Of a DNA stretch of 64,000 nt, positions 19 to 49,660 are shown piece by piece. Made by a program: the position numbers and the translations under genes. The notes under the pieces were generated by a model that worked only from the letters and a program-made list of their open reading frames with translations, ran no database searches and was not told the DNA's origin. Within the stretch, counting starts at the first letter, position 1, and each line of letters starts with the position of its first letter. Source of the stretch: an uncultured bacterium (lineage in GTDB: Bacteria; Electryoneota; Electryoneia; Electryoneales; Electryoneaceae); contig CAZIDZ010000003.1 in assembly GCA_964538455.1 (NCBI GenBank), positions 129,832-193,831 of the forward strand. Direction: 5' to 3'.

Positions 19-1779
19 TTGCTGCTGTTGACGGAAGAAACGTCTTCAAGGATTCTCGTCATTGACGACGAGTTGAGCATCCGTGAAATGCTCGCCCAGG
101 CGCTGGAAATCGGCGGCTTTCGGGTGGAGACCGCCGTGGATGGGGAGGAGGGACTCGAAAAATTCAGCAAGGATCAGTCGTTCGACGTTATCCTCACAGA
201 CTTGATGATGCCCAAGGTCAACGGAATGCAGGTGCTTGAGCAGGTGAAAAAACTTGACCCCACCGTCGAATTGATTATGCTCACCGGTTTCGGCGGGAAT
301 GAATCCGCAATCGAGGCGATGAAGAAGGGCGCCTACGACTATCTGCTGAAACCGACGAATGTCGAAGAGCTGTTTATTACTGTGCAGAAGGCAATCGAAA
401 GGCGCCGCCTCTCCGAAGAGAACAGACAGTACCAGCGTAATCTCGAGCGTCTCGTCCGGGAGCGAACCCGCGAGCTCAGCGAGACGAAAAACTTCCTCCA
501 GTCGATCCTCGATTCATCGCTGGACTACTCGATCATCGCCACGGGACTGAACGGCGTCATCACGCTTTTCAACAAGGGCTCGGAACGGTTGACCGGGTTT
601 GTAGCCACTGACATGGAGGCGAAAAAGACGATCTATGACTTCGTCCCCGGACTCGAGGAACGCCTGAAAAAGACCGATGAGGACGGTCTCAAGCCTGTCA
701 AGGGGACGCCGAGGGAGACCGTGTGCACGATGCTGCGTGCCGACGGCAGGAGGGTGACCGTTTCGATGTCCATCGCCGCGTTGACCAACCAGAAGAAAAC
801 GGTTGTCGGTACGCTCTTTATTTCCAAGGATATCACTGCGCAGAAAGCGCTCGAACACCAATTGAAAAAGTACACCGAGAACCTCGAACAGATCGTCCAG
901 GAGCGAACGGAGGAGCTCGCACGGCGCAACGATGAGCTCGAAAGAACACTCAGTGAACTGAACGAAACGCAGCAGCAGCTGCTCCAGTCGGAAAAGCTGG
1001 CGAGCATCGGACAGCTGGCCGCCGGCGTCGCGCACGAAATCAACAATCCGATCGGTTTCGTGCACTCGAACCTGAGCAACCTGCAAAAATTCAACAGCAG
1101 GCTTCAGCGCCTGCTTAAGGAAATTCGAGCTTCGGTCAAGGGAGGCGGCCTCTCTGAAACCCGGTATGATCAGCTTTGGAAAGAGGCGAAGCTCGAAAAG
1201 CTGCTACCGGAGCTGGACACGATGATCATGGAATCCCTCGACGGCACCCAGCGTGTGCGGACGATCGTCAGCGATCTGAAGAATTTCAGTAACATTGACC
1301 GCGCACAGGTCCAGGATGCCGATCTCGAGGCGGGGCTGGAGAGCACCCTCAACATCGTCTGGAACGAAATCAAGTACAACGCCGAGGTCGAGAAGCAATA
1401 CTCTAAAATACCAACAGTTACATGCAATCCGCAGCAGTTGAATCAGGTGTTTCTGAATCTCCTGGTGAATGCGGCGCACGCTATCAAGGAACCCCCGGGC
1501 AAGATTATAATACGGACATTACGAATTGACCAGGACCGGGTGGCCGTCGAAATTCAGGACAACGGGGCGGGCATTCCGGAAGGCAACCGGAAAAAAATCT
1601 TCGACCCGTTCTATACGACGAAACCGATTGGAGAAGGTACGGGATTAGGTCTCTCGATCAGCTACCGCATTGTGAAGGATCATGGGGGTGAAATCGAGGT
1701 GGAGAGCCAAGTGGGTGAAGGAACGACTTTCCGTGTGATTCTCCCGATCAAGGGACCCATGAGCGAAGAGGTGGAGTAA
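19..1779 (+). CDS. Hybrid sensor histidine kinase (N-terminal receiver, PAS, HisKA, HATPase_c)
   Basis: The N-terminus has an REC fold (ILVIDDE...ILTDLMMP with the acceptor Asp). The middle looks PAS-like. The H-box is SEKLASIGQLAAGVAHEINNPIGFV, and the G-boxes are DNGAGIP and GTGLGLSI. The start is TTG at 19 or 28; an in-frame stop at 8-10 prevents any extension upstream. Confidence 0.85.
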   Translation: MLLLTEETSSRILVIDDELSIREMLAQALEIGGFRVETAVDGEEGLEKFSKDQSFDVILTDLMMPKVNGMQVLEQVKKLDPTVELIMLTGFGGNESAIEAMKKGAYDYLLKPTNVEELFITVQKAIERRRLSEENRQYQRNLERLVRERTRELSETKNFLQSILDSSLDYSIIATGLNGVITLFNKGSERLTGFVATDMEAKKTIYDFVPGLEERLKKTDEDGLKPVKGTPRETVCTMLRADGRRVTVSMSIAALTNQKKTVVGTLFISKDITAQKALEHQLKKYTENLEQIVQERTEELARRNDELERTLSELNETQQQLLQSEKLASIGQLAAGVAHEINNPIGFVHSNLSNLQKFNSRLQRLLKEIRASVKGGGLSETRYDQLWKEAKLEKLLPELDTMIMESLDGTQRVRTIVSDLKNFSNIDRAQVQDADLEAGLESTLNIVWNEIKYNAEVEKQYSKIPTVTCNPQQLNQVFLNLLVNAAHAIKEPPGKIIIRTLRIDQDRVAVEIQDNGAGIPEGNRKKIFDPFYTTKPIGEGTGLGLSISYRIVKDHGGEIEVESQVGEGTTFRVILPIKGPMSEEVE

Positions 1780-1782
1780 CAC

Positions 1783-3105
1783 ATGGATCAGACAAAAACA
1801 CTGCTCTTCGTCGACGACGAACCGAATATCCTCAGCGCGCTGAAGCGGGTGTTCATCGACGATGAATTTGAGGTTGTCACCGCCAATTCCGGCAAGGAGG
1901 CGCTGGGGATCTTCAACGATCGTGAGATTCAGTTGATCATCTCGGACCAGCGCATGCCGGAGATGAGCGGTTCCGAGCTGCTGGCCAAAATACGCGAATC
2001 CAAGCCGGAAGTCATGCGCATCATCCTCACCGGTTTCGCGGACATGGACGCCGCGGTCGACTCGATCAACAACGGCCAGATCTATCAGTTCATCTTCAAG
2101 CCGTGGAACGATGAGGAGCTCCGCTCCGTCGTCCTCCGCGCCCTCGAAGCCTTCGACCTGCAGCACGAGAACAAGCGGCTTCTTGTCGAGTTGCAAAAGG
2201 CCAACAAGGAACTCGAGGAGCTGAACGACCAGCTCGCGCACAAGGTGAAGGAGCGGACGGCGCTTATCGTCCAGAAAAACCTCGAACTTGGCAAGCTGAA
2301 CAAATCGCTGGAATCCGCCCTGGTCAGCACCGTACGGGTCTTCGTCAACCTGCTCGAACTGAGCCGCCCGGAGGTCAGCCGGCACGCGCGCCGCGTCGCC
2401 ACCCTCGCGACCACCTTTGCGAAGCAGATGGGGTGGGAGGAGAAGCGGATCCACGATATCGAGATCGCGGCCCTGCTCCACGACATCGGCAAAATCGGCA
2501 TCCCCGAGATCATCCTCCGCAAACCCAACGAGGATCTCTCGGACGGCGAGCTGAAAGCGTTGAACAACCACCCGATCCTCGGCCAGAACATGATCGGGGC
2601 GATCGACTCGTTCAATGCCATCGGCAAAATTATCCGCGCCCATCATGAACAGTGGGGCGGCAAGGGTTTCCCGGATGGGCTGAAAGGAGAGGACATTCCG
2701 ATCGAAGCCCGGTTGCTCGCGGTGTGCAACCAGTTCGACCATCTGAAGGAGGATGGGAAAAGCCGGCCCTTCGTCGAGAAGTATTTCCAGAACGCCTCGG
2801 GGGAGAGCTTCGACCCCAAAATGACCGCGATGATGCTTGACTTTATCGGCAGTGCCGCGGGCCTCAATGACAGCGGTGAGGAGGGAGCGGCGCGCGGAGG
2901 CGTCACTGTGGGGGGGCAGCGAAAGGTCAAAGTCCTTCCCAACGAGCTGAAACCTGGCATGGTGCTTGCAGACAACTTGATGACCGGAAAGGGCATCTTC
3001 CTCTTGCCCCAGGGGCAATTGCTCAAGGAAACCCACATCCGGTCCATCCAGGACATTCAGCGGGTCGATCCGATCAAAGGCTCGATTGAAGTCTTGGTGG
3101 ATTGA
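1783..3105 (+). CDS. Response regulator with HD-GYP phosphohydrolase domain (c-di-GMP phosphodiesterase-like)
   Basis: The receiver domain (LLFVDDEPNIL, IISDQRMP) is followed by HDIGKIGIP and HHEQWGGKGFPDGL. This is the HD-GYP signature with Tyr replaced by Phe. The stop overlaps the fliR start. Confidence 0.85.
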   Translation: MDQTKTLLFVDDEPNILSALKRVFIDDEFEVVTANSGKEALGIFNDREIQLIISDQRMPEMSGSELLAKIRESKPEVMRIILTGFADMDAAVDSINNGQIYQFIFKPWNDEELRSVVLRALEAFDLQHENKRLLVELQKANKELEELNDQLAHKVKERTALIVQKNLELGKLNKSLESALVSTVRVFVNLLELSRPEVSRHARRVATLATTFAKQMGWEEKRIHDIEIAALLHDIGKIGIPEIILRKPNEDLSDGELKALNNHPILGQNMIGAIDSFNAIGKIIRAHHEQWGGKGFPDGLKGEDIPIEARLLAVCNQFDHLKEDGKSRPFVEKYFQNASGESFDPKMTAMMLDFIGSAAGLNDSGEEGAARGGVTVGGQRKVKVLPNELKPGMVLADNLMTGKGIFLLPQGQLLKETHIRSIQDIQRVDPIKGSIEVLVD

Positions 3106-7256: not shown

Positions 7257-8531
7257 ATGATCATTAAAAAATTCATCGCGGATACGATGAACGAAGCCCT
7301 GGCCCAAATCAAGCAGGAGCTGGGGGAGGATGCTGTCATCCTGCAGTCGCGCAGAGTGGAAAAACCCGGACTGCTCGGCGGAAAACAGCAGGTGGAGGTG
7401 ACCGCCGCCACTCCGGACCGCCACCCGGCGCCTCCCCGCGGCAGAAAGCCTCTGGTGAACGAAAGCATGCGCCGTTCCCTCGAGGGCGGGATCGTTCCGC
7501 CACCCGCGCGCCGGCAACCGCTCGGCACCAGGCGGTACAACCGTCCTGACGCCGCCCGCTCCGAGAAACAGCCCCCTGAGGCCGCTCCCTCGCCGGACGT
7601 CGAGGGGATGGAGATGGAAATCCGCGACCTGCGGAAAACCGTTGAAGATCTCGCGTCCCATCTGAAAAGCCAGGAATCCCCGGATGTCCCCGAAGTTCTC
7701 AAACGCGCCTGGAGCGATCTGGTCGCGAACGATGTTTTCAAGGCCACGGCAACGGATCTCGTCGTCGAACTCAGCAGCCGGTTGACTCCTGAACAGCTGC
7801 CCGATGGGGATCTCGTCGAATCGCGGCTGCATGACCTGATCGCTGAAAAATTCCGCATCGCCAGGCAGCGCGGGGCGTTGCGCAGCGAAAACCGCCCGCG
7901 CGCAATCGCCTTGATCGGGCCGACCGGTGTGGGCAAGACGACGACCCTGGCGAAGATGGCGACCAACAGGAAGGTGTTCGGCGAGGCGGATGTCGCGCTC
8001 GTCTCAACAGACACCTATCGCGTCGCCGCCGTGGAACAACTCAAGACCTTCGCCAGCATCGCGGGGATTCCGATGGACGTTGTCTACCGTCCTGAGGAGC
8101 TGGCGCGTTCTCTGGACCGGCACCGGAAGCGCGATGTGATTTTGATCGACACGGCGGGCAGGAGCCAGAATGACCGCGAGGCGCTCAGCGAACTGAAAAC
8201 GTTCATGAACGCCGCGCCGATTGATGAGGTCGTCCTCGTGATGGCCGCCAACACCCGCATCGAGGATCAGCGCCAGATGGTCGAGCGCTTTTCTTCCATT
8301 CCGGCCAACCGTGTGATCATCACGAAATTGGATGAAGCCACCTCGGCGGGCCACCTGCTCGAGATGTCGCGGCTGCTCCCGCGAGGGTGGAGCTTCTTGA
8401 CCACCGGCCAGAATGTGCCGGATGACATCACCGCCGCCGATGAGCTGTTGCTCGCCGCGATGGTCGCCAAGAAAGACTATTTCGAGCAGCTGAGGTCCAA
8501 CGGATTCCGCCTGCCGACGGCGGCCGAATAA
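7257..8531 (+). CDS. flhF: Flagellar biosynthesis GTPase FlhF (SRP-type)
   Basis: The N-terminus MIIKKFIADTMNEALAQIKQELGEDAVIL is FlhF-like. The G1 box is IALIGPTGVGKTT, with DTAGR and TKLDE motifs. Confidence 0.85.
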   Translation: MIIKKFIADTMNEALAQIKQELGEDAVILQSRRVEKPGLLGGKQQVEVTAATPDRHPAPPRGRKPLVNESMRRSLEGGIVPPPARRQPLGTRRYNRPDAARSEKQPPEAAPSPDVEGMEMEIRDLRKTVEDLASHLKSQESPDVPEVLKRAWSDLVANDVFKATATDLVVELSSRLTPEQLPDGDLVESRLHDLIAEKFRIARQRGALRSENRPRAIALIGPTGVGKTTTLAKMATNRKVFGEADVALVSTDTYRVAAVEQLKTFASIAGIPMDVVYRPEELARSLDRHRKRDVILIDTAGRSQNDREALSELKTFMNAAPIDEVVLVMAANTRIEDQRQMVERFSSIPANRVIITKLDEATSAGHLLEMSRLLPRGWSFLTTGQNVPDDITAADELLLAAMVAKKDYFEQLRSNGFRLPTAAE

Positions 8532-8624: not shown

Positions 8625-9500
8625 GTGACACGGGATCAGGCATCGACTCTTCGTACGCAGAACGGTGATCGTGCAAAAAGGAAGGATCGCGCCTTGCGAG
8701 CACGCCGCATTGCCGTAACGAGCGGCAAGGGAGGCGTTGGCAAGTCGAACGTCAGCCTCAACCTGGCGATCGCGCTCGCCCGCATGGGCCGCCGCGTGCT
8801 GCTCGTCGATGCCGATACAAACCTCGCGAACATCGATATCCTGCTCGGCATCCAGGCGCGGCTCACCCTCGCGGACGCCATCTTCGGAGATGCGTTCTTC
8901 GGGGATATCCTGCTCGAGGGTCCCGATGGGATCGCCATCCTTCCCGGATCGAGCGGCGTTGTTGAAATCATGGAGGAAGACGCTGCCGTTCGCCAGAAAA
9001 TGTTCGACGCGTTCGATGATCTCGAACGCCGATTCGACGTGCTGCTGATCGACACCGGGGCGGGTCTATCCGAAAATGTGCTCCATTTCGTGGCTGGCGC
9101 GGACGATGTCGTGCTGGTGACGAATTCCGAGCCGACCTCGATCACCGATGCCTACGCCATGGTCAAGGTGGCAACCCACATGAATCCGGCGCTCAAGCTG
9201 CAGGTCGTTGTCAACCTGGCGGCCAAGGAACAGGATGCGAAGGACACGTTCGAAAAGCTCCAGTTGGCCGTGCGGAATTTCCTCAGCGTCGATATCGAAA
9301 TGCTGGGCTTGCTGCCCGCGGACAAGAACGTGCTGGCGGCCGTCAACCAGCGGCAGCCGTTTCTCACTCTGTTCCCGAAAAGCGCGGCATCGACGGCGAT
9401 CATGCTGATGGCGCACAAGCTGATGCGCCGCACCCAGGCGCCGTCGGAGGACAGCGAAAACCTCGCCCGCAGAATCTATGACAAGATGGGTGGCGCATGA
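8625..9500 (+). CDS. flhG: MinD/ParA-family ATPase FlhG (FleN/YlxH)
   Basis: It carries the deviant Walker A (IAVTSGKGGVGKS) and LLVDAD, and follows flhF as in polar flagellar loci. The start is GTG. Confidence 0.85.
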   Translation: MTRDQASTLRTQNGDRAKRKDRALRARRIAVTSGKGGVGKSNVSLNLAIALARMGRRVLLVDADTNLANIDILLGIQARLTLADAIFGDAFFGDILLEGPDGIAILPGSSGVVEIMEEDAAVRQKMFDAFDDLERRFDVLLIDTGAGLSENVLHFVAGADDVVLVTNSEPTSITDAYAMVKVATHMNPALKLQVVVNLAAKEQDAKDTFEKLQLAVRNFLSVDIEMLGLLPADKNVLAAVNQRQPFLTLFPKSAASTAIMLMAHKLMRRTQAPSEDSENLARRIYDKMGGA

Positions 9501-9928
9501 CTCCGGGATGGAAGCAAGTCGCGAAAGCGTTCGGTTTTGTCCTGCTGTTCGGCATTATCGCGTGGAACCTCTACGTCGGGGCCGGTGTCTTCAACGCGAT
9601 CTTCCGCGGCCTCGTCGCCTGGCTGATTTTCCAGATCCTCAACATCGTCCTCACCAACGTCGTCGTCCGCCAATTGTCCGAGTACGAATACAAACGGTTG
9701 CGCCAGCTCGCGGAAGAGGAGGAGATGGAGGAGATGCAGCAGGCGCAGAACAACGTCGCCCTCGATGAGGACATCAGTGAGGCGAGCGAACAGGCAAAGG
9801 CGAGAACCGCGGCGCCCGCACCCGAAACCGCCAGGGAAACCGCCCCGGGCGAAGAAACTGCCTCCAGGGAAGAGCCCGCATCCAGCGAAAAGGAAGCCGA
9901 GGGTGAAAAGAGCGGAGACACTGGATGA
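9497..9928 (+). CDS. Small hypothetical membrane protein (2 TM + acidic tail)
   Basis: The start codon overlaps the flhG stop (ATGA) and the stop overlaps the fliA start (ATGA). There are two hydrophobic helices followed by a Glu-rich C-terminus. I saw no recognisable family. Confidence 0.5.
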   Translation: MTPGWKQVAKAFGFVLLFGIIAWNLYVGAGVFNAIFRGLVAWLIFQILNIVLTNVVVRQLSEYEYKRLRQLAEEEEMEEMQQAQNNVALDEDISEASEQAKARTAAPAPETARETAPGEETASREEPASSEKEAEGEKSGDTG

Positions 9929-10716
9929 CGATGCCTGAAATGGCCAGCATGCAGGATGACCAACTCTGGGGCCTGTGGGTGAAGTCGCCCGAGCAACAGG
10001 TCAAGGATGAGTTGGTTATTCGTTATTTGCCCCTCGTCGAACAGGTGGCGGGACGGATGAAGATCGGCCTCCCCGACTCCGTCCAGGTCGACGAGTTGGT
10101 CAATTCAGGAATCATCGGCCTCATCGGCGCAATCGACAATTTCGACCCCTCCCGGGGCTTCAAATTCGAAACCTACGCCGTCAACCGGATCCGCGGCTCC
10201 ATTCTCGACAGTCTTCGCGATTATGACTGGATGCCCCGCTCGATCCGCTCGAAAACACGTTCCCTGGAAACCGCCCTCGTGCGGCTCGAGGGGGAGCTGG
10301 GACGCGTCCCAAGCGATGACGAGGTAGCCGCCGCCCTTGATCTCGATATGGAGGCCTACTTCGCGCTGATCGACGAAGTGAAGGTCGCCAGCATTCTCTC
10401 CCTCGACCAGCCGATCACAGGTTCTGAGGGGGAAACGACATCCCTCAGTGAAATGCTCGAAGATGACGAAGGAGAGAATCTTTCGGACCGAGTGGAATGG
10501 CTTGAGGCGAAGGAAGTCGCAAAACGAATGATTTCGCAACTAAAACAGCAGGAAAGGCTGATTATTGCGCTATATTACTATGAAGAACTGACTTTACGTG
10601 AAATTGGTGAAGTTCTGGGCATCAGCGAATCACGAGTTTCTCAAATACACAGCAGAATTATTCTCACCCTCAAGGGTAAACTTCGCAGTTTGTACGACGA
10701 TAAGAGTCGTGAGTGA
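9925..10716 (+). CDS. fliA: Flagellar sigma factor FliA (sigma-28)
   Basis: It has sigma-70 region 2 (GLIGAIDNFDPSRGFKFETYAVNRIRGSI), region 3, and region 4 (LTLREIGEVLGISESRVSQIHSR). The 263-aa size is typical of FliA/WhiG. Confidence 0.85.
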   Translation: MTMPEMASMQDDQLWGLWVKSPEQQVKDELVIRYLPLVEQVAGRMKIGLPDSVQVDELVNSGIIGLIGAIDNFDPSRGFKFETYAVNRIRGSILDSLRDYDWMPRSIRSKTRSLETALVRLEGELGRVPSDDEVAAALDLDMEAYFALIDEVKVASILSLDQPITGSEGETTSLSEMLEDDEGENLSDRVEWLEAKEVAKRMISQLKQQERLIIALYYYEELTLREIGEVLGISESRVSQIHSRIILTLKGKLRSLYDDKSRE

Positions 10717-10731
10717 CCGGAGGCTGATCGC

Positions 10732-11094
10732 GTGGTCAAACCGATTTACCTGCAAGACAATCTCAGCAAGGCGCCGCTCGCCCAGATCTATCAGGACCTG
10801 GAAAATCCGGGCGCCGAACGCCTTCGTGACCTCCATCGGATGATCACGCTCCGCGAGCAGGAGCGCGCCGAGCAGGAGCAGGCGCCGAAAATGGAGGAGC
10901 GCCCGGGGACAGTGGCGATTCACCCGGACGGATCCTCCCGGGGCCGCGGAGGACGGCAACAGACCGCGTCCAAACGCGCAAAAGGCGCGCAGGGCAAAGC
11001 GAAAGCCGGTCCCGGTGAACGTGAAAACGACCTTCGCTTCCGCCGTCCGGATGACGACAAAGGGAAGGGCGATAAACTGGATCTCGAAGGGTAG
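10732..11094 (+). CDS. Hypothetical protein (basic/charged, 120 aa)
   Basis: The ORF starts at GTG directly after fliA and has biased composition. I saw no motif, so it is retained only for its position and length. Confidence 0.3.
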   Translation: MVKPIYLQDNLSKAPLAQIYQDLENPGAERLRDLHRMITLREQERAEQEQAPKMEERPGTVAIHPDGSSRGRGGRQQTASKRAKGAQGKAKAGPGERENDLRFRRPDDDKGKGDKLDLEG

Positions 11095-11098
11095 CCGG

Positions 11099-12814
11099 AT
11101 GAGGGCTGAGAGCGCACAGAATAGCTTTCGCAGGTCGCGACGGGAGATTGCTTCGCGTCTCGCGCTTCTGCTGCTCGCGTTCTCTATCCCTGCGGCATCC
11201 GCCCTCGCGAACCGCCTCGTATCCGCGAGCGTCGGGACACGCAACAGAAATTCTTCGCTGCTCGTCCTCAAGTTCGACGTTCCCACGCAGCTCACCCTCG
11301 GCGGGCGAGAGGGGAGGTCAATCGTCCTCTCCGGCGGCAGCGTCCAGCAGGGTCCTGAGTCGTTCCACGCTTCGGGCCTGATCCGCAACCTGCGCGTTCA
11401 AGGCGGTGATATCGTCGTCGATGCGACCCGCTATGTCCGGGCACGCATGACTTCCGCCGGGGCAGGCATCTACCTCATCGTGCTGGAATCCGCGAAGGAG
11501 CCAGCGAACGCTCAACCGCAGCGTGCGACCCCCTCGACGCCCGAAGTGACCAAAACCGGGCAGCAGGCGCAACCCGCCGTCGAACGGTCGGAAAAACCGG
11601 TCAAGACGGCGCTGGCGGAACCGGAAAAGGAGCAACCCGTTGAACGGCAGGAAACTGCTCCTCCACCTCAAGTAACACCGCAGACAACGGAGCCTAGCAC
11701 CCCTCAAACTCAGGAGTTCCAAACCTACCAACCGGATCTGACGCAGACCCAGGCCGGGTTCAGGAAGACCCTCGCCGATCTCTATGAGTGGGTTCCCGTG
11801 CATCCGGTCGTGCTGCCGACGACCGTGCAGTTCGCGCTGGAATTGTCGCAGCAGGGCAACCGGGACCGCGCGATTCTGCTGCTCGAATCGATCAAGCCGG
11901 AAGAACCCGAATTTGGCTGGAGTCGTATCGCTCTCGGCCGGATGATGGAGCAGGTCGGAGATTACAACAAAGCCCTCGACTACTACCGTGAGGCGCTCAG
12001 CGACCGCGAAACGGAGGGCGTAGCCGCGGTTCGGATCGCTCTCGCGTTCCAGGCCGTCGGCAACCGAACCGCTTCCGTGGGGCTGTGGGAGCGCGTGCTC
12101 GACATGAACCAGGGACAGATCTACGTCGAACCGTCCGAGATGCCCCAACCGCGCGCTGAACCTTCATCTTACGCGATGCAGACCCCGGCGGAACCCGTCG
12201 CCATCAGCCCGCAGGAACCTTCGACGCCCACGGAGCAGCCTCCCTCCACGGATACCACCGCGGAGTTGAACGCTTCCGCCGGAAAATCCGGTAAGGCCGC
12301 CGAACCGAAGAAAAACACATTCTCCTTCGTCCGTCTCTGGCCGTTCGCCATCGGATTCATCGCGCTCTCCGCGTTGCTCTATTTCGTCCTCAGCCGCTTG
12401 AAAAAGCGCCCCAGTGCCAAGGAATACGACATCCACCAGGATATGGCGAACCTCGGCCTCGATATCGAACTTGACGAAGAGCCCGAGCCCGCCGCCGGGC
12501 CGCGTGTGGCGGATATGTACGCCGCCCAGTCCGGCGAGGCTGCTCCGGAACCCGAAGAGGGGGTCGAACAGCACGAAGAGAAACCTGCCGGTGAGGGAGA
12601 AGAGGAAGAGCAGGAGGATGTCCAGCTCAATGAGATACCGGAACCGAACGATTTGAACATTGACACCAATGATTTCGATCTGAGCGACGACAAGGTAGCT
12701 CAAGTCCGCGAGATGCACGCTCAGGGCGCAACCGTGCGCGAAATTGCTGAAGAACTTGGAATTGGACAGGATGAAGTGCGCATGGCCATCCGCCTCGCCG
12801 AAGCCGGCCAATAG
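11099..12814 (+). CDS. Hypothetical secreted/membrane protein: signal peptide, beta-rich N-domain, Pro/Thr/Gln linker, TPR-like helices, one TM helix, acidic tail, C-terminal sigma-70 region-4-like HTH
   Basis: The start is taken at ATG 11099, after the stop of the previous ORF. The signal peptide is LALLLLAFSIPAASALA and the TM segment is WPFAIGFIALSALLYFVL. The C-terminus ATVREIAEELGIGQDEVRMAIRLAEAG resembles sigma region 4.2. Confidence 0.55.
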   Translation: MRAESAQNSFRRSRREIASRLALLLLAFSIPAASALANRLVSASVGTRNRNSSLLVLKFDVPTQLTLGGREGRSIVLSGGSVQQGPESFHASGLIRNLRVQGGDIVVDATRYVRARMTSAGAGIYLIVLESAKEPANAQPQRATPSTPEVTKTGQQAQPAVERSEKPVKTALAEPEKEQPVERQETAPPPQVTPQTTEPSTPQTQEFQTYQPDLTQTQAGFRKTLADLYEWVPVHPVVLPTTVQFALELSQQGNRDRAILLLESIKPEEPEFGWSRIALGRMMEQVGDYNKALDYYREALSDRETEGVAAVRIALAFQAVGNRTASVGLWERVLDMNQGQIYVEPSEMPQPRAEPSSYAMQTPAEPVAISPQEPSTPTEQPPSTDTTAELNASAGKSGKAAEPKKNTFSFVRLWPFAIGFIALSALLYFVLSRLKKRPSAKEYDIHQDMANLGLDIELDEEPEPAAGPRVADMYAAQSGEAAPEPEEGVEQHEEKPAGEGEEEEQEDVQLNEIPEPNDLNIDTNDFDLSDDKVAQVREMHAQGATVREIAEELGIGQDEVRMAIRLAEAGQ

Positions 12815-12941: not shown

Positions 12942-12957
12942 CGGCACGGCGTTTGCC
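12942..12957 (+). promoter_or_regulatory. Candidate sigma-54 (-24/-12) promoter for flgF operon
   Basis: cGGCACGgcgtTTGCc matches TGGCACG-N4-TTGCW, with GG at 12943-12944 and GC at 12955-12956. It lies 41 nt upstream of the flgF ATG. Confidence 0.5.
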
Positions 12958-12997
12958 GATCAGCTTGGTGTGCACTCTGGTTTACGGGGACCCAAGC

Positions 12998-13741
12998 ATG
13001 ATACGAGGCATTTACCACTCAGCGGCCGGAATGTTGCCGCGCTACTACCAGTTGGTCAATGTTTCCAATAACTTGGCCAATGCAACAACCACATCCTTCA
13101 AAGCCGACCGCCGTTATTTCAGCACCGTCCTGAACAATGAACTCGTCCAGCCGGGCGCGGGCAACCACGAAAAGCGGCTCGAGGACCTGGACAAGGGGTT
13201 GTACACCAACTTCAGCCAGGGGGCCATCAGCCCCACCGGCAACAAAACCGATTTCGCCCTGAACGGCACCGGCTATTTCGTCATCGAGAATCCCGAAACA
13301 TCCGAGCGGTTCTACACGCGTGACGGGCGTTTCAAGATCAACAACCAGGGCGAACTGGTCACCTCCCTCGGGTACAAGGTGCTCGACGATTCCGGGTCAT
13401 CCGTTATCGTCCATGACAGCAACTTTTTCGTTGACGATAAGGGCACCCTGTTCGTCCGTGGGTCGCAGACGACCGGCCTGATGCTCGCCGACTTTGAGGA
13501 TCCGCACGTCCTGATCAAAAAGGGCGACAGCATGTACCAGACCAAGGATCCGAACGCCTACCCGATCCCCGCGGAAGACACGCGGGTGATCCAGGGAAGC
13601 CTCGAAGCGTCCAACGTGAACATCGTCGAAGAGATGGTGACCATGATCGACCTCAACCGCAACTACGAATCCTCTCAACGCGCGTTGATGGCGCAGGATG
13701 AATCTCTTGGCAAGCTGATCAACACGGTGCCGCGGTTCTAG
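12998..13741 (+). CDS. flgF: Flagellar basal-body rod protein FlgF
   Basis: It has the Flg_bb_rod N-terminus (MIRGIYHSAAGM...NNLANATTTSFKAD) and a conserved C-terminus (LEASNVNIVEEMVTMI). Confidence 0.8.
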   Translation: MIRGIYHSAAGMLPRYYQLVNVSNNLANATTTSFKADRRYFSTVLNNELVQPGAGNHEKRLEDLDKGLYTNFSQGAISPTGNKTDFALNGTGYFVIENPETSERFYTRDGRFKINNQGELVTSLGYKVLDDSGSSVIVHDSNFFVDDKGTLFVRGSQTTGLMLADFEDPHVLIKKGDSMYQTKDPNAYPIPAEDTRVIQGSLEASNVNIVEEMVTMIDLNRNYESSQRALMAQDESLGKLINTVPRF

Positions 13742-20845: not shown

Positions 20846-23800
20846 ATGCCGGACAAGCGTGACCTGAACCGAGACGCCGCTGAATTTGCTTCGCGTTTTA
20901 CGGAGAGCAGCCCGGAAGAGAGCTCCGGGGACAGCGTTCAAAATGTGCTCATCCTTGCCCACGCGATCCCCACGCTGGCGAGCATCGGAGAGAAAAAGCG
21001 GGCTACGGACGCCGCGTTGAAGCTGCTCCGGATGCGCGACGATCGCGGTGGCTGGGATGACCCCTTACCCACGGTGATCGCTCTGGAAGCGTTCGTCGCC
21101 CTCCGGCTGCGTGGAATGGACCTGGACGATGGCCCGCAGGCTGTCGAGTACGCCGTCCGTTTTCTCCGCGATTCACGCCCGCTGGAGCTGCTCGAGCATG
21201 AGCTTCGCCTCGCGCGCAGCCTCGTTCTCGCTGGGTTGGCAAGGCAGGACGCGGCATTGATCGACGCCGGACTGCTCCGCGCACGATCGGCGCTCGAAAA
21301 AGAGCCGCGCTGGTCCCGCGACCTCGATATCGCCCTGCACGGCCTGCTCGCGGTCGCCGACCTGGTTACGATCACAAAGGACTCCACGACCGAGCAGCTG
21401 ATCTCGAGGCTGCTCGCTGAACACCACCTCGATCAGCCGGAACCGGAAGGGATCGAGGCGCAATCGGTGGCGGTGCTCGCCCGCGCGGGAACCGTGCTCG
21501 AAAAACTGGGCAGGCGCGACGCGGCGGTGGCCATGTACAAAAGAGCCGTGGAAAGCGCCGATGCCGCTTCCCTTGACACCGCTTCGCTCAAGTTCCGGGT
21601 GGAGTTGGGGGTGCGCATCTTCGGTGAGCCCGGTGATCAAGGCGGCGCGGGCGAAATCCCCGCGGGCGGCGAACAACCGGACCAAACGGAGCAGCAGACA
21701 GCGGAGCTGAAACCGGTGAGGTATGACGAGCTGCCTGCGGAGGCGACGTTCAATCGCTCCTCGGTCAGTGCGGTCATTCTCCAGAACGGACCCGCTGAAT
21801 CGGTGATCCAGACCCTGGAAGACCTCGCCGCGCAAACCGAACTGCCGGAGCAGATCGTCATCCTCTGGACCTCTCCCTCGTCACGCGCGCAGCTCCCCGA
21901 CCTGCCCACCGATCTCGCCGAGATTCACGGCGCCTTTGGATGGGGTGAATCCCCCTGGAGACTGGCGTTCCAGGTGGCACGGGCCGACTGGGTCTGGATG
22001 ATCCCCTCCGGCGTGCGCATCCTGCCGGACACCCTGATGGCGCTGAAACAGTCCGGCGGCCGCAAGCAGGCCATCTGCCTCTCGAAAAAAGAAGGCGGCC
22101 TCGACAAGGCCTTCGCTGGTCTCGTCGCGGAACCCACCCTCGCTGCGGAACGGTGCCTGATCAGGAGAGACGTTGCAGCTCACCTGCGTACTCCCCGGGC
22201 GAATGGGAGTTTCTGGGATATTGCGGCGTCCGTGGGAGAAAGGGAAGACTGGCGCGAGGTCGTGGAGAATGGCGAAGTGGGCATTCAGCCGGTCGAACAG
22301 GGTCTCGAATCCCTGCTCGCCGCCGTTCACTCCCTCGCCGGCCACTACCGGCTCTTCCCGGTGGACGGTCCCGAGCAGCGAAAACTGCGCCACGACAGCG
22401 CCGCGCGGTTGCGTGACGAACTCTACCGCGCCTGCCAGGAATGGGAACAGCCTCTCGTTTCGGTGATTCTCGCAGGCTCCACGTCCGGCGGGTCGCTGGA
22501 AAAATCCTTCAGTTCGCTGCTGCGCAACACTCAGGAAATCCCCTTTGAGGTAATCGCGATCCTGCCCGCCGGGGTGGACCTTTCCTTGCGGAATGCGATG
22601 CTCGACGCCGGGGTGCTCATCGTCCCCGGTTCCGAGATCCCGACCGCGGATCTCAACCGCGCCGCCGCCAAGGCGAAGGGACAGATGCTGGTGATCCTCG
22701 AAGCCGGAAGCGAGCCGGAAGAGGGGTGGCTGCAGGCGATGATGGCCGCCGCGTTCGACGAACCAAACGCCGGAATCGTCGGCGGCCTGGTGCAAAGCCC
22801 GGCGATGACCATCCTTCACGCCGGGATTGCCTTCGACGACAGAGCGAATCCGATTTACCTCCACCAGGGCGCGCCGCTCGTCCTCAGCCATATCCATCGC
22901 CGCAGGGCATACCAGGCGGTGGGAGGGGGGATCGTCCTGGCCTCCAGACCGCTTTGGGAGCTGCTTCGCGGACTCGATGAGGGATTCGACGACGCCGTGG
23001 AAAACGCCCTGATCGATTTCTGCCTGCGCGCCCGCGAGAAGGATGTTCGAGTCATCTATGAACCGAAGGCAAAAGCCACCCATCACGTCTCGCAGCCATC
23101 CGCCCCAGAAGCGAACCGGCATTTCATCAAGAAATGGCGGGATCGGGTCGTTCCCGACGTCGAATTGTACGCCCGGATGGACGGCTACCGCGCGGAATCC
23201 AGGGAGCGAAGAATCGTCCTGGTTCCCATCGGACCCACGCTCAAAGCAAACGGGGAGGAGGCCATGAGCAGCTCCTCAACTTCGACACCGTCCCATGTCA
23301 TCAAGGCCGATTCGTCGGACAACGATCTGGCGTCCCTGCTCACCCGTGCTGAAACGCTGATGCGTGACGGGCGTTATGACATCGCCGAGGAGGCCTTGGT
23401 ACAGGGGCAGCACCAGGTGAACGGAAATGTGGGCGCCCGGGTGATCTACTGGACGCTGCTAGGCGACAGCAAATTCCGGCTGAACAAGACCGAAGACGCC
23501 TACGATTGCTACAAGAAGGCCGTGAAGGACGATCCGAGTGCGGAACGCGCCTGGATCGGAATCGCTACCTATCACCTGGTCAAGGGCGAACTCGAGAAAG
23601 CGGAAGACATATTCCGCCGCGTAATCTCGCTCAACGATTCGAGCACTCGCGGCTACCTCGGGCTGGGCAACGTCTATCTCCGCCGCGGCCAGCCCGGTGA
23701 CGCGCTCCCCAGCTTCGTCGAAGCCTCCCGCCTCGATCCCGGCTACCGTCCGACGGTTGTCGGCCTCGTCGCCGCCGCCGTCCAGGCGGAACAGATGCAG

Positions 23801-24004
23801 GAGGCGCTGACCCCGTTGCAGCAGTACCTGCAAATTCATCCCGAGGACAACGAGGCTCGTTTCCACTACGCCGCGATCCTGTTCGGCAACCAGGACAACG
23901 CGCACGCGAAAGAAGAAGCGATGAGGGTGCTCCGGGTGAAACCCGATCACCAGGGAGCGCGCGAACTGCTCGACAACCTGTCCCGGAACAGGGATGCATC
24001 CTGA
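20846..24004 (+). CDS. Large multidomain protein: N-terminal helical-repeat region, two GT-A (family 2-like) glycosyltransferase domains, C-terminal TPR repeats
   Basis: The GT2-like cores are VSAVILQNG.. and PLVSVILAGS..DDAVENALIDFCLRAREKDVRVIYEP. The C-terminal TPRs follow WTLLGDSKFRLNKTEDAYDCYKKAVKDDP. Its 10 nt gap to flgL is the basis for the block being co-transcribed with flgKL. Confidence 0.75.
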   Translation: MPDKRDLNRDAAEFASRFTESSPEESSGDSVQNVLILAHAIPTLASIGEKKRATDAALKLLRMRDDRGGWDDPLPTVIALEAFVALRLRGMDLDDGPQAVEYAVRFLRDSRPLELLEHELRLARSLVLAGLARQDAALIDAGLLRARSALEKEPRWSRDLDIALHGLLAVADLVTITKDSTTEQLISRLLAEHHLDQPEPEGIEAQSVAVLARAGTVLEKLGRRDAAVAMYKRAVESADAASLDTASLKFRVELGVRIFGEPGDQGGAGEIPAGGEQPDQTEQQTAELKPVRYDELPAEATFNRSSVSAVILQNGPAESVIQTLEDLAAQTELPEQIVILWTSPSSRAQLPDLPTDLAEIHGAFGWGESPWRLAFQVARADWVWMIPSGVRILPDTLMALKQSGGRKQAICLSKKEGGLDKAFAGLVAEPTLAAERCLIRRDVAAHLRTPRANGSFWDIAASVGEREDWREVVENGEVGIQPVEQGLESLLAAVHSLAGHYRLFPVDGPEQRKLRHDSAARLRDELYRACQEWEQPLVSVILAGSTSGGSLEKSFSSLLRNTQEIPFEVIAILPAGVDLSLRNAMLDAGVLIVPGSEIPTADLNRAAAKAKGQMLVILEAGSEPEEGWLQAMMAAAFDEPNAGIVGGLVQSPAMTILHAGIAFDDRANPIYLHQGAPLVLSHIHRRRAYQAVGGGIVLASRPLWELLRGLDEGFDDAVENALIDFCLRAREKDVRVIYEPKAKATHHVSQPSAPEANRHFIKKWRDRVVPDVELYARMDGYRAESRERRIVLVPIGPTLKANGEEAMSSSSTSTPSHVIKADSSDNDLASLLTRAETLMRDGRYDIAEEALVQGQHQVNGNVGARVIYWTLLGDSKFRLNKTEDAYDCYKKAVKDDPSAERAWIGIATYHLVKGELEKAEDIFRRVISLNDSSTRGYLGLGNVYLRRGQPGDALPSFVEASRLDPGYRPTVVGLVAAAVQAEQMQEALTPLQQYLQIHPEDNEARFHYAAILFGNQDNAHAKEEAMRVLRVKPDHQGARELLDNLSRNRDAS

Positions 24005-24031
24005 CCGCCTGTCTTGCGAAAGGAGGGCAGG

Positions 24032-25474
24032 ATGACAGGCACCCGTAAAATTGGCGTCGTCCAACTCGCCCGGTTCGGCGACCTGGTCCAGACCACACCG
24101 TTCCTCCAGCGACTCCGCGAACAGGAACCGGGTGCCAGTATCTCGATCATCGTTGATCGGCGAGTCGAAGCTGTCGCCAACCTGCTCGATGACGTGGACG
24201 AGGTTATCGGCGTCGATCTCGCCGGGATTCCCGCTCACCTGACCGGGACCATCCTCGCCGATTACGAAAACCTGCGCGCCTGGGTCAAATCCTGGCGGCG
24301 GGATACGGATTACGACCGGCTGATCCTGCTGAACCACGGGGCGATTCCCGAAGCCGTCGCGTCATTTCTCGGAGCTGAACGCCGCGAGGGCCCGGGACGC
24401 GGTTCCGCCTTCGACCGGCCGCACCGCCTGCTTCGGGCCGCTCTCTCAAACAGGGCATTCATTCCGCTCCATCTCAGCGAGGTTTGGGCGGCGTACGGTC
24501 CTCGAAAATTCCCCGTCCCAGCCCCGAAAATAAAGCCCGTAAAGTCCGGCACAACCTTTGCATTTCTAGATGGAAAAGGGCATGTAAGAGATAATAAAAA
24601 CAAGGTATTTGCGGTCAATTTGGGGGCGGGTGCGGCAGGAAGGCGAATGTCCACGGAAAACCTTGCCGCTCTCGTCCGAACGCTGGTCAATGGCAACCCG
24701 TATAGGCTGGTCGCAGTCGGTACGGATGACGACAGGCAAACCGCCGCCCGGCTGATGCAATCCGTACCGCTGAATAATCGCAATCGTGTAATCGATCTTA
24801 CTGGAAATACGACACTTGAACAACTGACGGGCGTGCTCGAGGCGGTGGACGTCCTGATTTCAGCGGACACGGGCACGTTGCAGCTTGCGGCGGCTGCGGG
24901 AACGGCTTCGGTTGGCCTCTTCTTTGCCAACGCCAACCCAATAGAAACAGGAGCTTATTCCCCCGGCGCCGTGGCTGTTGTCCGCCGCGACACCCTGCGT
25001 CCCGGACCGCAGCCGTCGGCCGGCGACATGGTGTTGGCGGCGAAAGTCGCGACCAGGCTGGTTCAGGGGCAACCCTTGGAGGATCTGGAAGATGAAAGCG
25101 ACACCTGTTTTGTGCTGGTGGCCCGATCTGCACCTGTGGGTGTCGAGTACGAACCCCTGCGACCCGGCTCAAAAGGGAATCTGGGGCAGGGCGGACGATG
25201 GCTTCCTCTGCTCAGGCAGTTCCTCTGGGCGGGAGATCGGATCGGCGAGACGGTTCCGGGCAGCCGCAAAGCCTGGACCGATCTCTTCGGTAGTGAGGAC
25301 GCCCTCCGCCTGAGGGATCTTCACGATCAGATCGTGCAGAACGGGGGAAAACAGCTTGAATCGTGGGATGAGGAAACCCGCTGGCTCGCCCACATCGTCG
25401 CGGAGTTTCCCAATGAGACCGCACTCTGGACAGCTCAGATGCTGGCGAGCAAAGCCGGGAGGATTCACGCATGA
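24032..25474 (+). CDS. GT9-family (ADP-heptose heptosyltransferase-like) glycosyltransferase
   Basis: The N-terminus IGVVQLARFGDLVQTTPFLQRL is the RxGDxV hallmark of Glyco_transf_9. There is a Shine-Dalgarno (AAGGAGGG) before ATG 24032. Confidence 0.7.
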   Translation: MTGTRKIGVVQLARFGDLVQTTPFLQRLREQEPGASISIIVDRRVEAVANLLDDVDEVIGVDLAGIPAHLTGTILADYENLRAWVKSWRRDTDYDRLILLNHGAIPEAVASFLGAERREGPGRGSAFDRPHRLLRAALSNRAFIPLHLSEVWAAYGPRKFPVPAPKIKPVKSGTTFAFLDGKGHVRDNKNKVFAVNLGAGAAGRRMSTENLAALVRTLVNGNPYRLVAVGTDDDRQTAARLMQSVPLNNRNRVIDLTGNTTLEQLTGVLEAVDVLISADTGTLQLAAAAGTASVGLFFANANPIETGAYSPGAVAVVRRDTLRPGPQPSAGDMVLAAKVATRLVQGQPLEDLEDESDTCFVLVARSAPVGVEYEPLRPGSKGNLGQGGRWLPLLRQFLWAGDRIGETVPGSRKAWTDLFGSEDALRLRDLHDQIVQNGGKQLESWDEETRWLAHIVAEFPNETALWTAQMLASKAGRIHA

Positions 25475-25776
25475 GTGAAATGAACCTGGACACGGAGGTG
25501 GCGGCTGCTGCGGAAAGCAGCCTCGGCCGTCCAGACAGCGGTGTGAGACGTGTGACGACGACCCCGTGGGCCGTGTTCGTCCACGCCTCGCCGGTCTACA
25601 TCACGAGCGATCAACCGTCCCGTCCTCGCCGTGGGCGTCCCGCGTCCCATCGAAATGTCGCGCACAATCGCCGCGGGATGCGGTTGCCCGATGATTACCC
25701 CTACGCGAATCGCCGTTGGAGCGAACGACTCCGTGTGCTGCGCGCGGTTCGTCACGATGCGGGAGAACTGTCATGA
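25471..25776 (+). CDS. Possible small basic protein, translationally coupled on both ends
   Basis: Its ATG overlaps the upstream stop (ATGA), and its TGA overlaps the downstream ATG (ATGA). It is Arg/Pro-rich with no motif, so it could instead be a frame artefact in a 300 bp spacer. Confidence 0.25.
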   Translation: MSEMNLDTEVAAAAESSLGRPDSGVRRVTTTPWAVFVHASPVYITSDQPSRPRRGRPASHRNVAHNRRGMRLPDDYPYANRRWSERLRVLRAVRHDAGELS

Positions 25777-34967: not shown

Positions 34968-35801
34968 ATGAGTACTCGCATCAACCACAACATCCTCGCA
35001 CTCACCGCCCAAAGGAATATCTACCGAACCCAGACAGATTTGGACCGCACTCTCACGCGGCTCTCCTCGGGTTTGCGGATCAACTATTCCTGGGACGACC
35101 CCGCGGGGTTGGCGGTGAGCGAGAGATTCCGTGCCCAAATCGCCTCAATGGTCGAAGCGGAACGGAACGCAAATTACGACGTCAACCTGCTGGCGACTGC
35201 AGAAGGGTCGTTGCAGACCATTGACAACACACTGACGCGTATGCGCGCGCTGGCGATCCAGGCGTCCAACGGCGCCCTGGCATCCCAGGATCGGGCTTCG
35301 CTGGACGAGGAATTCCAGCAGCTCGCTTCAGAGATCACGCGTATCGCGCACACAACCAATTACAACGGTCTTTACCTGCTGAGTGGGGACTATTCCACGG
35401 CTGGAATCAAGTTCCACATCGGCACGTACAACGTGAGTGGGCAGGATTACTACTACGTCACGTTGAACGACATGAGCGCCAGCGCGCTCGGGTTGACTGG
35501 CCTGAATCTGTTGAACACTGTCAGCGCCCAGAACTCGATCGCTTCGCTGGATGCGGCAATCAACACCAAGGATACTGAGCGGACACGCATCGGTTCGCAG
35601 GTTTCTCGTCTGCAGAACACGATCACGAACCTGCAAGTCGCCAAGGAAAATGCGTCTTCGTCCGAGTCGACCATCCGTGACGCGGATATCGCCGAAGAGA
35701 TGAGTGCTTTCGTGCGATCCCAGTTGCTGATGCAGACTGGCATCTCGATGCTTTCCCAGGCGAACATGGTGCCGCAAATCGTTGCGGGTTTGGTCGGGTA
35801 A
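34968..35801 (+). CDS. fliC: Flagellin
   Basis: The N-terminus MSTRINHNILALTAQRNIYRTQTDLDRTLTRLSSGLRINYSWDDPAGLAVSERF and the C-terminus AFVRSQLLMQTGISMLSQANMVPQIVAGLV are flagellin-like. At 277 aa the variable D2/D3 domain is minimal. Confidence 0.9.
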   Translation: MSTRINHNILALTAQRNIYRTQTDLDRTLTRLSSGLRINYSWDDPAGLAVSERFRAQIASMVEAERNANYDVNLLATAEGSLQTIDNTLTRMRALAIQASNGALASQDRASLDEEFQQLASEITRIAHTTNYNGLYLLSGDYSTAGIKFHIGTYNVSGQDYYYVTLNDMSASALGLTGLNLLNTVSAQNSIASLDAAINTKDTERTRIGSQVSRLQNTITNLQVAKENASSSESTIRDADIAEEMSAFVRSQLLMQTGISMLSQANMVPQIVAGLVG

Positions 35802-46628: not shown

Positions 46629-46790
46629 GTTCTACCCTCGCTTCCCGGGTTCATACCCCGAAGACGCCGGAATTGATGACAGTTGGTGCACAGGATACAC
46701 GGTCAATCCTACTCTGCTCACGGAAAAGGGCTGATCTTGAATTCGGAATAGACTCTGCAAAGCCAGCGAATTTTGAGACGTACAAGGATG

Positions 46791-48257: not shown

Positions 48258-48266
48258 TGGCGCAAT

Positions 48267-49490: not shown

Positions 49491-49660
49491 TCCAATTACG
49501 AGGATAAGCTGTCGTTGTGATCCTATCTTTCATCCAGCTTGCAAAGGTAAACCTTGCCCCTGCTGGACGCAAGGTATACTTTTGCTGCTGCCGCCGGGAG
49601 TATGCTGTTTAGGTTATTGATATTAAAGCGTATTAAGAGTGCATTTGAACGGACACGCCG

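Follow-up and report, generated by a model that had tools for sequence, protein, structure and literature searches.

A long, membrane-anchored candidate relative of FipA and SwrB encoded with flhF, flhG and fliA in an uncultured bacterium

The window analysed here is a 64,000-nucleotide stretch of contig CAZIDZ010000003.1 (assembly GCA_964538455.1, from an uncultured bacterium), in which an uncharacterised protein of 571 residues is encoded within a flagellar locus at 11099-12814 on the + strand. An original prediction had suggested that this protein, hereafter the target, could be a membrane-tethered mimic of sigma-28 region 4 or a ToxR-like DNA-binding regulator. Our comparisons suggested another identity. 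On its sequence, the target is best read as a long member of the FipA/SwrB (DUF2802/DUF6115) group, whose proteins are membrane-anchored and co-inherited with flhF, flhG and fliA. It falls outside strict DUF2802 and short-DUF6115 membership and shares with these proteins the module, the topology and the gene neighbourhood; we therefore regard it as a variant of that group. On balance, the target is probably a factor of the FipA/SwrB type that works through protein contacts in placing or assembling the flagellum, and very probably neither a DNA-binding regulator nor a sigma-28 mimic.

Results

Topology and domain layout of the target

The open reading frame (ORF) at 11099-12814 ends with a stop codon at 12812-12814. 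Its ATG at 11099 lies 4 nt past the stop of the upstream ORF, is preceded by a Shine-Dalgarno-like GAAGGG stretch and agrees with the N-termini of five homologues. An alternative GTG start at 11015 was rejected, as it overlaps the conserved upstream ORF and is not backed by the homologue N-termini. The topology and domain identities of the target are established, and its features are as follows (TM, transmembrane; HTH, helix-turn-helix).

11099-12814 (+): whole gene, encoding a 571-residue bitopic inner-membrane protein with five full-length homologues at 42-59% identity
11099-11209 (+): Sec-type signal peptide, residues 1-37, with an RRSRRE n-region, the h-region LALLLLAFSIPAASALA and a cleavage site between ALA and N (hydropathy and sequence)
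11210-11497 (+): predicted periplasmic AMIN-fold beta-sandwich domain, residues 38-133 (AlphaFold2 and Foldseek)
11498-11812 (+): variable Pro/Gln/Thr-rich periplasmic linker, residues 134-238 (composition; pLDDT <50; unalignable across the family)
11813-12109 (+): TPR-like periplasmic domain of six helices, residues 239-337 (DSSP helices 241-336)
12110-12334 (+): second variable periplasmic linker, Pro/Ser/Thr-rich, residues 338-412 (composition; low pLDDT)
12335-12394 (+): single TM helix, residues 413-432 (Kyte-Doolittle maximum 2.16; model helix 414-435), with RLKKR next
12395-12673 (+): cytoplasmic tether, residues 433-525, with juxtamembrane EYDI..D.ANLGLD and RVA.MYA.Q motifs followed by a variable Glu/Asp/Pro-rich spacer
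12674-12811 (+): three-helix HTH-like module of the DUF6115/DUF2802 type, residues 526-571, with the signature G543-x15-E559-x2-M562

Because RLKKR follows the TM helix, the positive-inside rule places residues 433-571 in the cytoplasm and residues 38-412 in the periplasm. The position of the signal peptide is kept in homologues, and its cleavage is predicted from hydropathy and sequence. The first linker contains Q15, P14 and T14 per 87 residues, and an RxWP...G motif in the TM region is conserved in the alignment of homologues. On the cytoplasmic side, the conserved juxtamembrane motifs occupy residues 433-478 and the acidic spacer residues 479-525 (net charge -18); the three short helices of the module span residues 530-570 in the AlphaFold model. 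The architecture originally proposed (signal peptide, beta-rich AMIN-like N-domain, Pro/Thr/Gln linker, TPR-like helices, single TM segment and acidic tail) was found element by element, and topology and domain analysis agree on a bitopic, flagellar-locus-linked protein with a cytoplasmic HTH-like C-terminus.

The C-terminal module resembles DUF6115 and DUF2802 more than sigma region 4

We scored the target against Pfam, whose gathering cutoffs are 27 bits for DUF6115, 33.5 for DUF2802, 23.8 for HTH_7, 24.1 for Sigma70_r4 and 25.7 for Sigma70_r4_2. The best non-TPR match of the full-length protein was DUF6115 (26.8 bits), followed by HTH_7 (19.5), Sigma70_r3 (16.7), DUF2802 (16.6) and Sigma70_r4 (12.5). 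The two shorter queries gave the following scores.

54-residue module: DUF6115 27.6 bits, HTH_7 24.9, DUF2802 22.0, Sigma70_r4 17.1
TM-to-end fragment: DUF6115 30.7 bits, HTH_7 21.7, DUF2802 22.7, Sigma70_r4 14.4

Module and fragment both scored above the DUF6115 cutoff, in a match that spans only positions 60-133 of the 134 in the profile (PF19610), and the target does not have the short architecture (100-250 residues) of that family. Sigma70_r4 stayed below its cutoff in every test, as did Sigma70_r4_2 (12.4-15.1 bits). Across 26 long family members, 24 matched DUF6115 at E<=0.01 (best E 3.2e-11), 10 matched DUF2802 (best E 1.7e-5) and 3 matched Sigma70_r4_2; a faint precomputed DUF2802 match was also present on one member.

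Profile-profile comparison gave the same ranking. When aligned by hhalign with 27 short TM+DUF6115 proteins, the family module reached 99.0% probability (E 3.9e-18, 40 columns), a comparison that is not fully independent because the short proteins were recruited by a profile built from this family, although Pfam annotates them independently: DUF6115 was matched by 27/27 (best E 3e-35) and DUF2802 by 20/27 as well. Against the FliA family of these loci the probability was 8%, over 20 columns aligned to FliA 220-239. A signature G-x15-E-x2-(L/M/T) was present in 17/17 long and 27/27 short relatives, with L at the last position in 29, M in 11 and T in 4. In the target these residues are G543, E559 and M562, whose +16/+19 spacing is that of FipA G110/E126/L129, the FipA residues being compared by published numbering and not by sequence alignment. 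I549, A550 and D558 are invariant in the 26 aligned long proteins, in which the module is the only nearly invariant part. Judged on sequence, the module is of the HTH fold class, with DUF6115/DUF2802 and not sigma region 4 as its specific relatives; it is homologous to the C-terminal module of the short TM+DUF6115 proteins and, more distantly, to DUF2802.

The claimed resemblance of the C-terminus to region 4.2 is real as a local similarity: BLASTP of the target against the FliA of the locus gave 9/21 identities in the helix-turn part of region 4.2, both are of the three-helix HTH class, and T(V/L)REI(A/G)E.LG(I)(G/S) is common with FliA 222-236. This similarity is generic and weak. Of the two profile classes predicted for the C-terminus, the isolated module passes HTH_7 and fails Sigma70_r4 (12.5-17.1 bits over the three queries). 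Unlike FliA region 4.2 and HTH_7, the target module is membrane-tethered, carries a GQ(D/G)EV.(L/M) signature and has an acidic third helix. Over the long family the module has a mean net charge of -3, and its third ("recognition") helix, DEVRMAIRLAEA in the target, ranges from -1 to -3; the whole cytoplasmic part of the target carries -27, and FliA region 4 carries +3. An acidic module with an acidic third helix argues against DNA binding. Membership of sigma-70 region 4 (PF04545/PF08281) is therefore lacking in score and in the basic recognition helix for -35 contact.

A search of PDB sequences with the module profile did not find a DUF6115 or DUF2802 structure. It returned a weak match to 2lvs and a match to 8vd6 (E 5e-20), which is a de novo designed repeat protein (PMC12339374); we discarded the latter as an artefact of idealised helical sequence. 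In a tblastn search of plasmids with the module, only generic resolvase and IS21 HTH segments were found (E>0.03) and an annotated DUF2802 gene was not.

A family with conserved architecture

A word-indexed search retrieved only the five close homologues, all unnamed or "hypothetical". The same kind of search found nothing with the 54-residue module alignment, not even the family itself, and with a 26-sequence full-length alignment it was swamped by unrelated TPR proteins. The distant members came solely from an exhaustive hidden Markov model (HMM) search of representatives with a TM-to-end profile, which retrieved 216 proteins at E<=1e-3. These fell into about 20 further clusters (50% identity) of 400-560 residues with the same full architecture, short proteins of 100-250 residues in which an N-terminal TM helix accompanies the module (GxGEVKLVIDL type), and TM-less proteins with tandem generic HTH repeats that do not have the GQ(D/G)EV signature. 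The TM-less proteins (P0010, P0017-P0023 and others) contain 3-16 copies of a 35-residue HTH-like unit, P0010 having 16 copies in 957 residues. A metagenome scan with the module alignment gave 9 loci.

The alignment of the long proteins, 26 in total, takes in the AMIN-like domain, TPR block, TM helix and module, at identities down to ~16-20%; since the architecture is kept at such distances, it is more than a chance feature. The family sources are metagenome-assembled genomes labelled "bacterium" and candidate division LCP-89, and at one locus a neighbouring gene with a domain of the type IX secretion system (T9SS) sorting type gives a hint of the FCB group.

Conserved neighbourhood with flhF, flhG and fliA

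The gene order flhA-flhF-flhG-(two-TM ORF)-fliA-(98-120-residue ORF)-(optional HDOD and GAF/PAS/HisKA genes)-target, on one strand, was found in 10/10 distinct loci with upstream flank, together with the window, and this synteny includes members at only 19-27% identity. The gene is thus not absent from related flagellar loci, the outcome that would have counted against the original prediction. The neighbouring genes in the window are listed below.

7257-8531 (+): flhF, signal recognition particle (SRP)-type GTPase, same operon (Pfam SRP54, E 1e-39)
8625-9500 (+): flhG, MinD/ParA-type ATPase, same operon (Pfam ParA/CbiA/MipZ; conserved synteny)
9497-9928 (+): small two-TM ORF of 143 residues in the flhG-fliA interval, conserved in 8 loci
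9925-10716 (+): fliA, sigma-28 (NCBIfam FliA_WhiG 249.9 bits, cutoff 189.6; Pfam Sigma70_r2/r3/r4)
10732-11094 (+): small ORF of 120 residues in the fliA-target interval, conserved in 8 loci, with its stop 4 nt before the target ATG
12953-13741 (+): flgF, rod protein, next gene downstream (Pfam Flg_bbr_C and LlgE_F_G_D1)

Spacing from flhG to the target is -4 to +15 nt, and no + strand terminator was predicted. The ORF at 9497-9928 shares its first 4 nt with flhG (9497-9500) and its last 4 nt with fliA (9925-9928). In its product, which is 93-158 residues long in 8/8 loci, two TM helices at the N-terminus are accompanied by a conserved FRG motif and an acidic tail; against Pfam and NCBIfam the product gave no significant match (E>=0.005 only, far below curated cutoffs). 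The position "right after fliA" given in the original prediction needs one correction, since the conserved ORF at 10732-11094 sits between fliA and the target. Relatives of this ORF, 98-120 residues long, have in common MVKPIHLQDNLSK at an N-terminus that looks invariant, a basic middle part and NDLRFRRPEDDKGKG.KLD at the C-terminus, and no significant Pfam (one match, E 0.19), NCBIfam or PDB-sequence match was obtained. From its position after fliA it could encode a FlgM-like or other sigma-28 partner, a suggestion that no test supports.

Downstream, the target lies just before flgF-flgG-flgA-flgH-flgI. The mechanical start of flgF is TTG 12953; because homologues align from residue 16, ATG 12998, which begins MIRGIYHS, is probably the real one. 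The 183-nt gap after the target holds GCCGATCA (12955-12962), which looks like a -10 element for sigma-28. We considered whether flgF has a sigma-28 promoter upstream and set the idea aside, as only this -10-like element was present, with no TAAA at canonical spacing. In distant loci (L005 5803-8004, L007 4825-6934, L009 4730-7014), HDOD and GAF/PAS/HisKA genes lie between the post-fliA ORF and the family gene, and flgF-flgG does not come after it. A short DUF6115 gene was found downstream of fliA in a cheC-cheD-fliA operon of the Firmicutes che/fla type. Rfam matched nothing within the window.

The ectodomain combines a predicted AMIN fold with TPR-like helices

The N-domain (residues 38-133) is all-beta in an AlphaFold2 model built from a 24-sequence alignment (pLDDT 94.8, pTM 0.85). 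Its best Foldseek superpositions on the PDB were with the PilQ B2/AMIN domain 4aqz (TMq 0.68, root-mean-square deviation (rmsd) 4.1), and other AMIN matches were PilQ 4av2 (TMq 0.64) and E. coli AmiC 4bin (TMq 0.66, rmsd 3.7). As modelled, the N-domain has the AMIN beta-sandwich fold, and the AMIN-like periplasmic domain originally proposed is thereby backed by model and superposition alike. By sequence, the window protein did not match Pfam AMIN (PF11741/PF24837) at E<=1, such matches being confined to distant family members (AMIN in 3, best E 0.0042; AMIN-like in 1, E 1.2e-4), and a profile of the N-domain gave nothing significant against PDB sequences.

The six helices at 241-336 form three TPR-like pairs. 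The window protein scored 26.8 bits for TPR_7 (cutoff 27.9), 19/26 family members matched TPR_2 (best E 4e-7), and Foldseek matched the domain to consensus TPR proteins at E 2e-4. In the alignments the TPR block is the family's most conserved part.

AMIN domains bind septal or polar peptidoglycan and are also present in the flagellar proteins FliO and PflA (PMC10653833, PMC12403147); AmiC and PilQ use the fold in this way (PMC10653833, PMC2572700, PMC12403147). From this behaviour in AmiC and PilQ, and from the presence of the domain in FliO and PflA, we infer that the target may be anchored to a specific part of the sacculus.

Comparison with FipA, SwrB, HubP/FimV and AMIN-containing flagellar proteins

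FipA, a DUF2802 protein of 163 residues with an N-terminal TM helix, was described in 2024. It binds FlhF, and in Vibrio, Pseudomonas and Shewanella both flagellation and the placing of FlhF at the pole depend on it; its G110A and L129A substitutions abolish FlhF binding, and fipA lies immediately downstream of the flhA-flhF-flhG-fliA-che operon (PMC11620751). Like the target, it is membrane-anchored with a cytoplasmic C-terminal helical module, shows the G-x15-E-x2-L spacing and co-occurs with flhF/flhG, and both genes end the flhA-flhF-flhG-fliA block. Where FipA has only 5 periplasmic residues and an N-terminal TM helix, the target has an AMIN+TPR part of 375 residues in the periplasm, with the TM helix in its C-terminal third. 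Homologues of FipA were reported absent from Bacillus, epsilon-proteobacteria and spirochaetes (PMC11620751), and our literature search found no mention of DUF6115; the relationship between FipA and SwrB/DUF6115 therefore seems undescribed.

In sequence, the short TM+DUF6115 proteins are the best match for the C-terminal module, and they share with the target a single TM helix, a cytoplasmic C-terminus and a gene downstream of fliA/sigD. swrB itself sits downstream of sigD in the fla/che operon. In the short forms the TM helix is N-terminal, a coiled-coil segment is present and an ectodomain is missing, whereas the target has a signal peptide and a 375-residue ectodomain; their module carries GQGEV and is slightly basic (+1), that of the long family GQDEV and acidic (-3).

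SwrB of B. subtilis is likewise a single-pass protein with a cytoplasmic C-terminal domain (preprint 10.1101/2021.04.30.442225), as is the target. It activates hook export through FliP/FliF (PMC4526659), so that a larger share of basal bodies exports hook protein (PMC4526659; preprint 10.1101/2021.04.30.442225). In this protein no region is more critical than the junction that follows its TM helix, and L155P causes a conditional loss of function (10.1101/2021.04.30.442225). When swrA is missing too, sigma-D-dependent expression falls on loss of swrB (10.1101/2021.04.30.442225), because hook completion fails and FlgM export is affected (PMC4526659). By analogy, an indirect effect of the target on the sigma-28 regulon is plausible.

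For SwrB we used a sequence not verified against a database, which agrees with five published mutant residues (H13, L48, F51, L53 and L155). This unverified sequence scored 27.0 bits against DUF6115, exactly at the cutoff, over nearly the whole profile, and hhalign of the family module with it gave 88% probability (E 3e-6, 35 columns). It carries G136/E152/L155 at the signature spacing, so that L155 and FipA L129 fall on the same position.

HubP's C-terminal domain is reported, in passages of PMC12918733 and PMC12826062, to bind FlhF. HubP/FimV resembles the target in that a domain binding peptidoglycan lies in the periplasm, there is a single TM helix, and the cytoplasmic side has a long acidic region and, at the C-terminus, a domain for protein interaction; it differs in being much larger, with LysM in place of AMIN and with a TPR-like FimV domain that is cytoplasmic and C-terminal. 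No LysM or FimV Pfam match on the target and no sequence relationship to HubP/FimV was detected, making this an analogy of design only.

PflA, described as a wholly periplasmic scaffold protein with no known cytoplasmic tail, resembles the target in combining an N-terminal beta domain with TPRs; PflA and PflB have ~770-820 residues with long TPR arrays. The AMIN-bearing FliO of Campylobacterota and others is bitopic like the target, with AMIN outside and a small domain inside, and stabilises the export-gate protein FlhB; PflA is an AMIN-containing scaffold protein (PMC10653833, PMC12403147). The cytoplasmic core of FliO is beta-sheet and fliO sits with fliPQR, unlike the three-helix module of the target. 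FliO was rejected as an identity for the target, whose cytoplasmic part is predicted to be helical or disordered, whose gene is not beside fliPQ and which gave no FliO HMM match at E<=1. FlgM and FliK were rejected as well, having no HMM match at E<=1 in Pfam or NCBIfam; in line with the original prediction, the protein belongs to an uncharacterised family.

Discussion

Proposed role of the target

The above findings suggested a model in which the target helps to decide where and whether a basal body starts. The AMIN domain would hold the protein at one particular part of the sacculus, probably a division-site-derived pole, and the TPR block would contact a periplasmic partner. The acidic tether (~95 residues) would hold the 45-residue module near the membrane, where the module could either recruit FlhF, as FipA does, or license the nascent MS-ring/export gate, as SwrB does, in both cases by protein-protein contact. 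The flhF product would be the cytoplasmic partner, and we consider the version with FlhF recruitment somewhat more likely than a pure SwrB-like activator. The target would join in one polypeptide what gamma-proteobacteria divide between HubP/FimV and FipA. A fuller version, in which the target is an all-in-one landmark whose AMIN domain reads division-site or polar peptidoglycan while its module recruits FlhF, tying the flagellum's position to the pole's cell-wall history, is put forward tentatively.

Several points weigh against this model. For the AMIN fold, Foldseek gives weak E-values (0.03-0.09), and beta-sandwiches of small heat-shock proteins reach similar E-values against the N-domain, at far worse rmsd; both the binding of peptidoglycan and a polar localisation are putative. 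The FipA/DUF2802 assignment combines the G/E/L spacing and the flhF-flhG-fliA linkage (10 loci) with a direct DUF2802 (PF10975) score below threshold (16.6-22.7 bits against 33.5), and the putative FlhF contact is carried over from DUF2802 proteins. The recruitment of the short-DUF6115 alignment by the family's own profile, described above, belongs here too. DUF6115 has no published function, its proposed link to SwrB comes through the unverified SwrB sequence, and the described activities of FipA and SwrB differ.

Alternative explanations

One alternative keeps the module and dispenses with FlhF: the juxtamembrane segment and the module would act transiently on FliF/FliP, as in SwrB, and the ectodomain would only stabilise the protein in the envelope. 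The higher score of the module on DUF6115, which SwrB matches, than on DUF2802, the hhalign result with the unverified SwrB sequence and the hook-export activity of SwrB all speak for it, as does the conservation of the family's juxtamembrane motifs at what in SwrB is the most critical junction; the stabilisation of FlhB by an AMIN-bearing FliO offers a parallel for the ectodomain. SwrB itself, however, is only a threshold-level DUF6115 member, and AMIN is best known as a localisation device. We regard this alternative as unlikely, if still worth serious thought; the two activities may in fact be inseparable, because SwrB L155 is equivalent to FipA L129, which is needed for FlhF binding. Less probable again is that the target mainly serves as a periplasmic motor scaffold, with its AMIN+TPR ectodomain as a PflA-like part of a disk or collar and its tail as a secondary anchor. 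The second-ranked Foldseek match of the full model was indeed a C. jejuni periplasmic flagellar scaffold chain (9hmf_K, E 2.4e-4, 355 columns), the PflA N-terminal domain was among the N-domain matches (9leq, TMq 0.41), PflA is an AMIN-containing scaffold, the TPR block is highly conserved and the gene lies just upstream of flgF-flgG-flgA-flgH-flgI. The rmsd of the 9hmf alignment is 27 A, however, so the match is one of domain composition and not of superposition; there are only three TPR pairs, far below the PflA/PflB arrays, and half of the distant loci have no rod or ring genes after the family gene. A secondary tail is also unlikely, because the module is the only nearly invariant part across the 26 members.

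The two regulatory explanations fared worse. A ToxR-like, membrane-tethered DNA binder of inverted topology, whose HTH would bind flagellar promoters on a periplasmic envelope cue, gains something from the HTH_7 score of the isolated module (24.9 against 23.8 bits) and its weak matches to many DNA-binding HTH families, from the resolvase and IS21 segments that were all the plasmid search returned, and from the TM-less HTH repeat proteins also retrieved by the profile search. Against these stand the acidity of the module (mean -3) and of its third helix where FliA region 4 is basic, at least 18 further negative charges in the tether, the lack of reported DNA binding for the closest relatives FipA and SwrB, which act by protein-protein contacts, and the GQ(D/G)EV signature that separates the group from generic HTH repeat proteins. 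We find a DNA-binding role very improbable. Lowest of all we place the decoy idea, in which FlgM, or another ligand of region 4, would be titrated at the membrane by a tethered module that mimics FliA region 4.2. The local similarity to FliA region 4.2 and the shared operon with fliA favour it, together with the lowered sigma-D-dependent expression on swrB loss; yet only the generic helix-turn part is covered, neither the Sigma70_r4 scores nor the hhalign comparison with FliA sustains it (3/26 members match Sigma70_r4_2), and the DUF6115 signature residues differ from those conserved in FliA region 4.2 (SESRVSQIHS). Hook completion and FlgM export account for what SwrB does to sigma-D, and no flgM gene was recognised beside the target. 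Both regulatory claims of the original prediction are mostly unsupported, and a FipA/SwrB-type factor is the more likely reading.

Other features of the window

Directly upstream of fliR-flhB-flhA, at 19-3105 (+), lie genes for a hybrid response-regulator/PAS/histidine kinase and for a response-regulator/HD-GYP-type (HD_5) protein, which suggests that cyclic di-GMP or a two-component system feeds into the flagellar operon. Positions 20846-33761 (+), which lie between flgL and the flagellin gene (34968-35801), encode a 1052-residue TPR protein and five large glycosyltransferases (GT9 heptosyltransferase-like, Glyco_trans_1_2 and DUF3880, with one 984-residue GT9+GT1 fusion); this is probably a flagellin glycosylation island. 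At 46001-50000 the GC content falls to 0.46-0.50, against ~0.60 elsewhere, over Wzy-like and Wzz/GNVR polysaccharide genes flanked by GT2, sugar transferase and flippase-like genes, as is typical of a variable surface-polysaccharide locus.

Significance

How FlhF finds its site is an open question outside a few gamma-proteobacteria, and the mechanism of SwrB is unresolved. The present comparisons suggest that the cytoplasmic modules of FipA and SwrB/DUF6115 are related, FipA L129 and SwrB L155 being one residue position at which mutations matter in both proteins, and that the module travels with flhF-flhG-fliA across distant phyla. They further suggest that certain uncultured diderm lineages have joined it to a periplasmic AMIN+TPR ectodomain, a fusion that offers a concrete, testable route from cell-wall landmarks to FlhF. 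Should the module not bind FlhF, the finding would be a conserved flagellar gene found only in uncultured bacteria, of modest interest. If the landmark reading is true, a single ancient superfamily, inherited together with flhF-flhG-fliA, would comprise FipA of gamma-proteobacteria, SwrB/DUF6115 of Firmicutes and the long form, carried by LCP-89 and by unclassified lineages that probably belong to the FCB group; this would contradict the view that FipA homologues are absent outside polar gamma-proteobacteria. Confirmation would unify two separately studied factors and provide a simple model of flagellar positioning.

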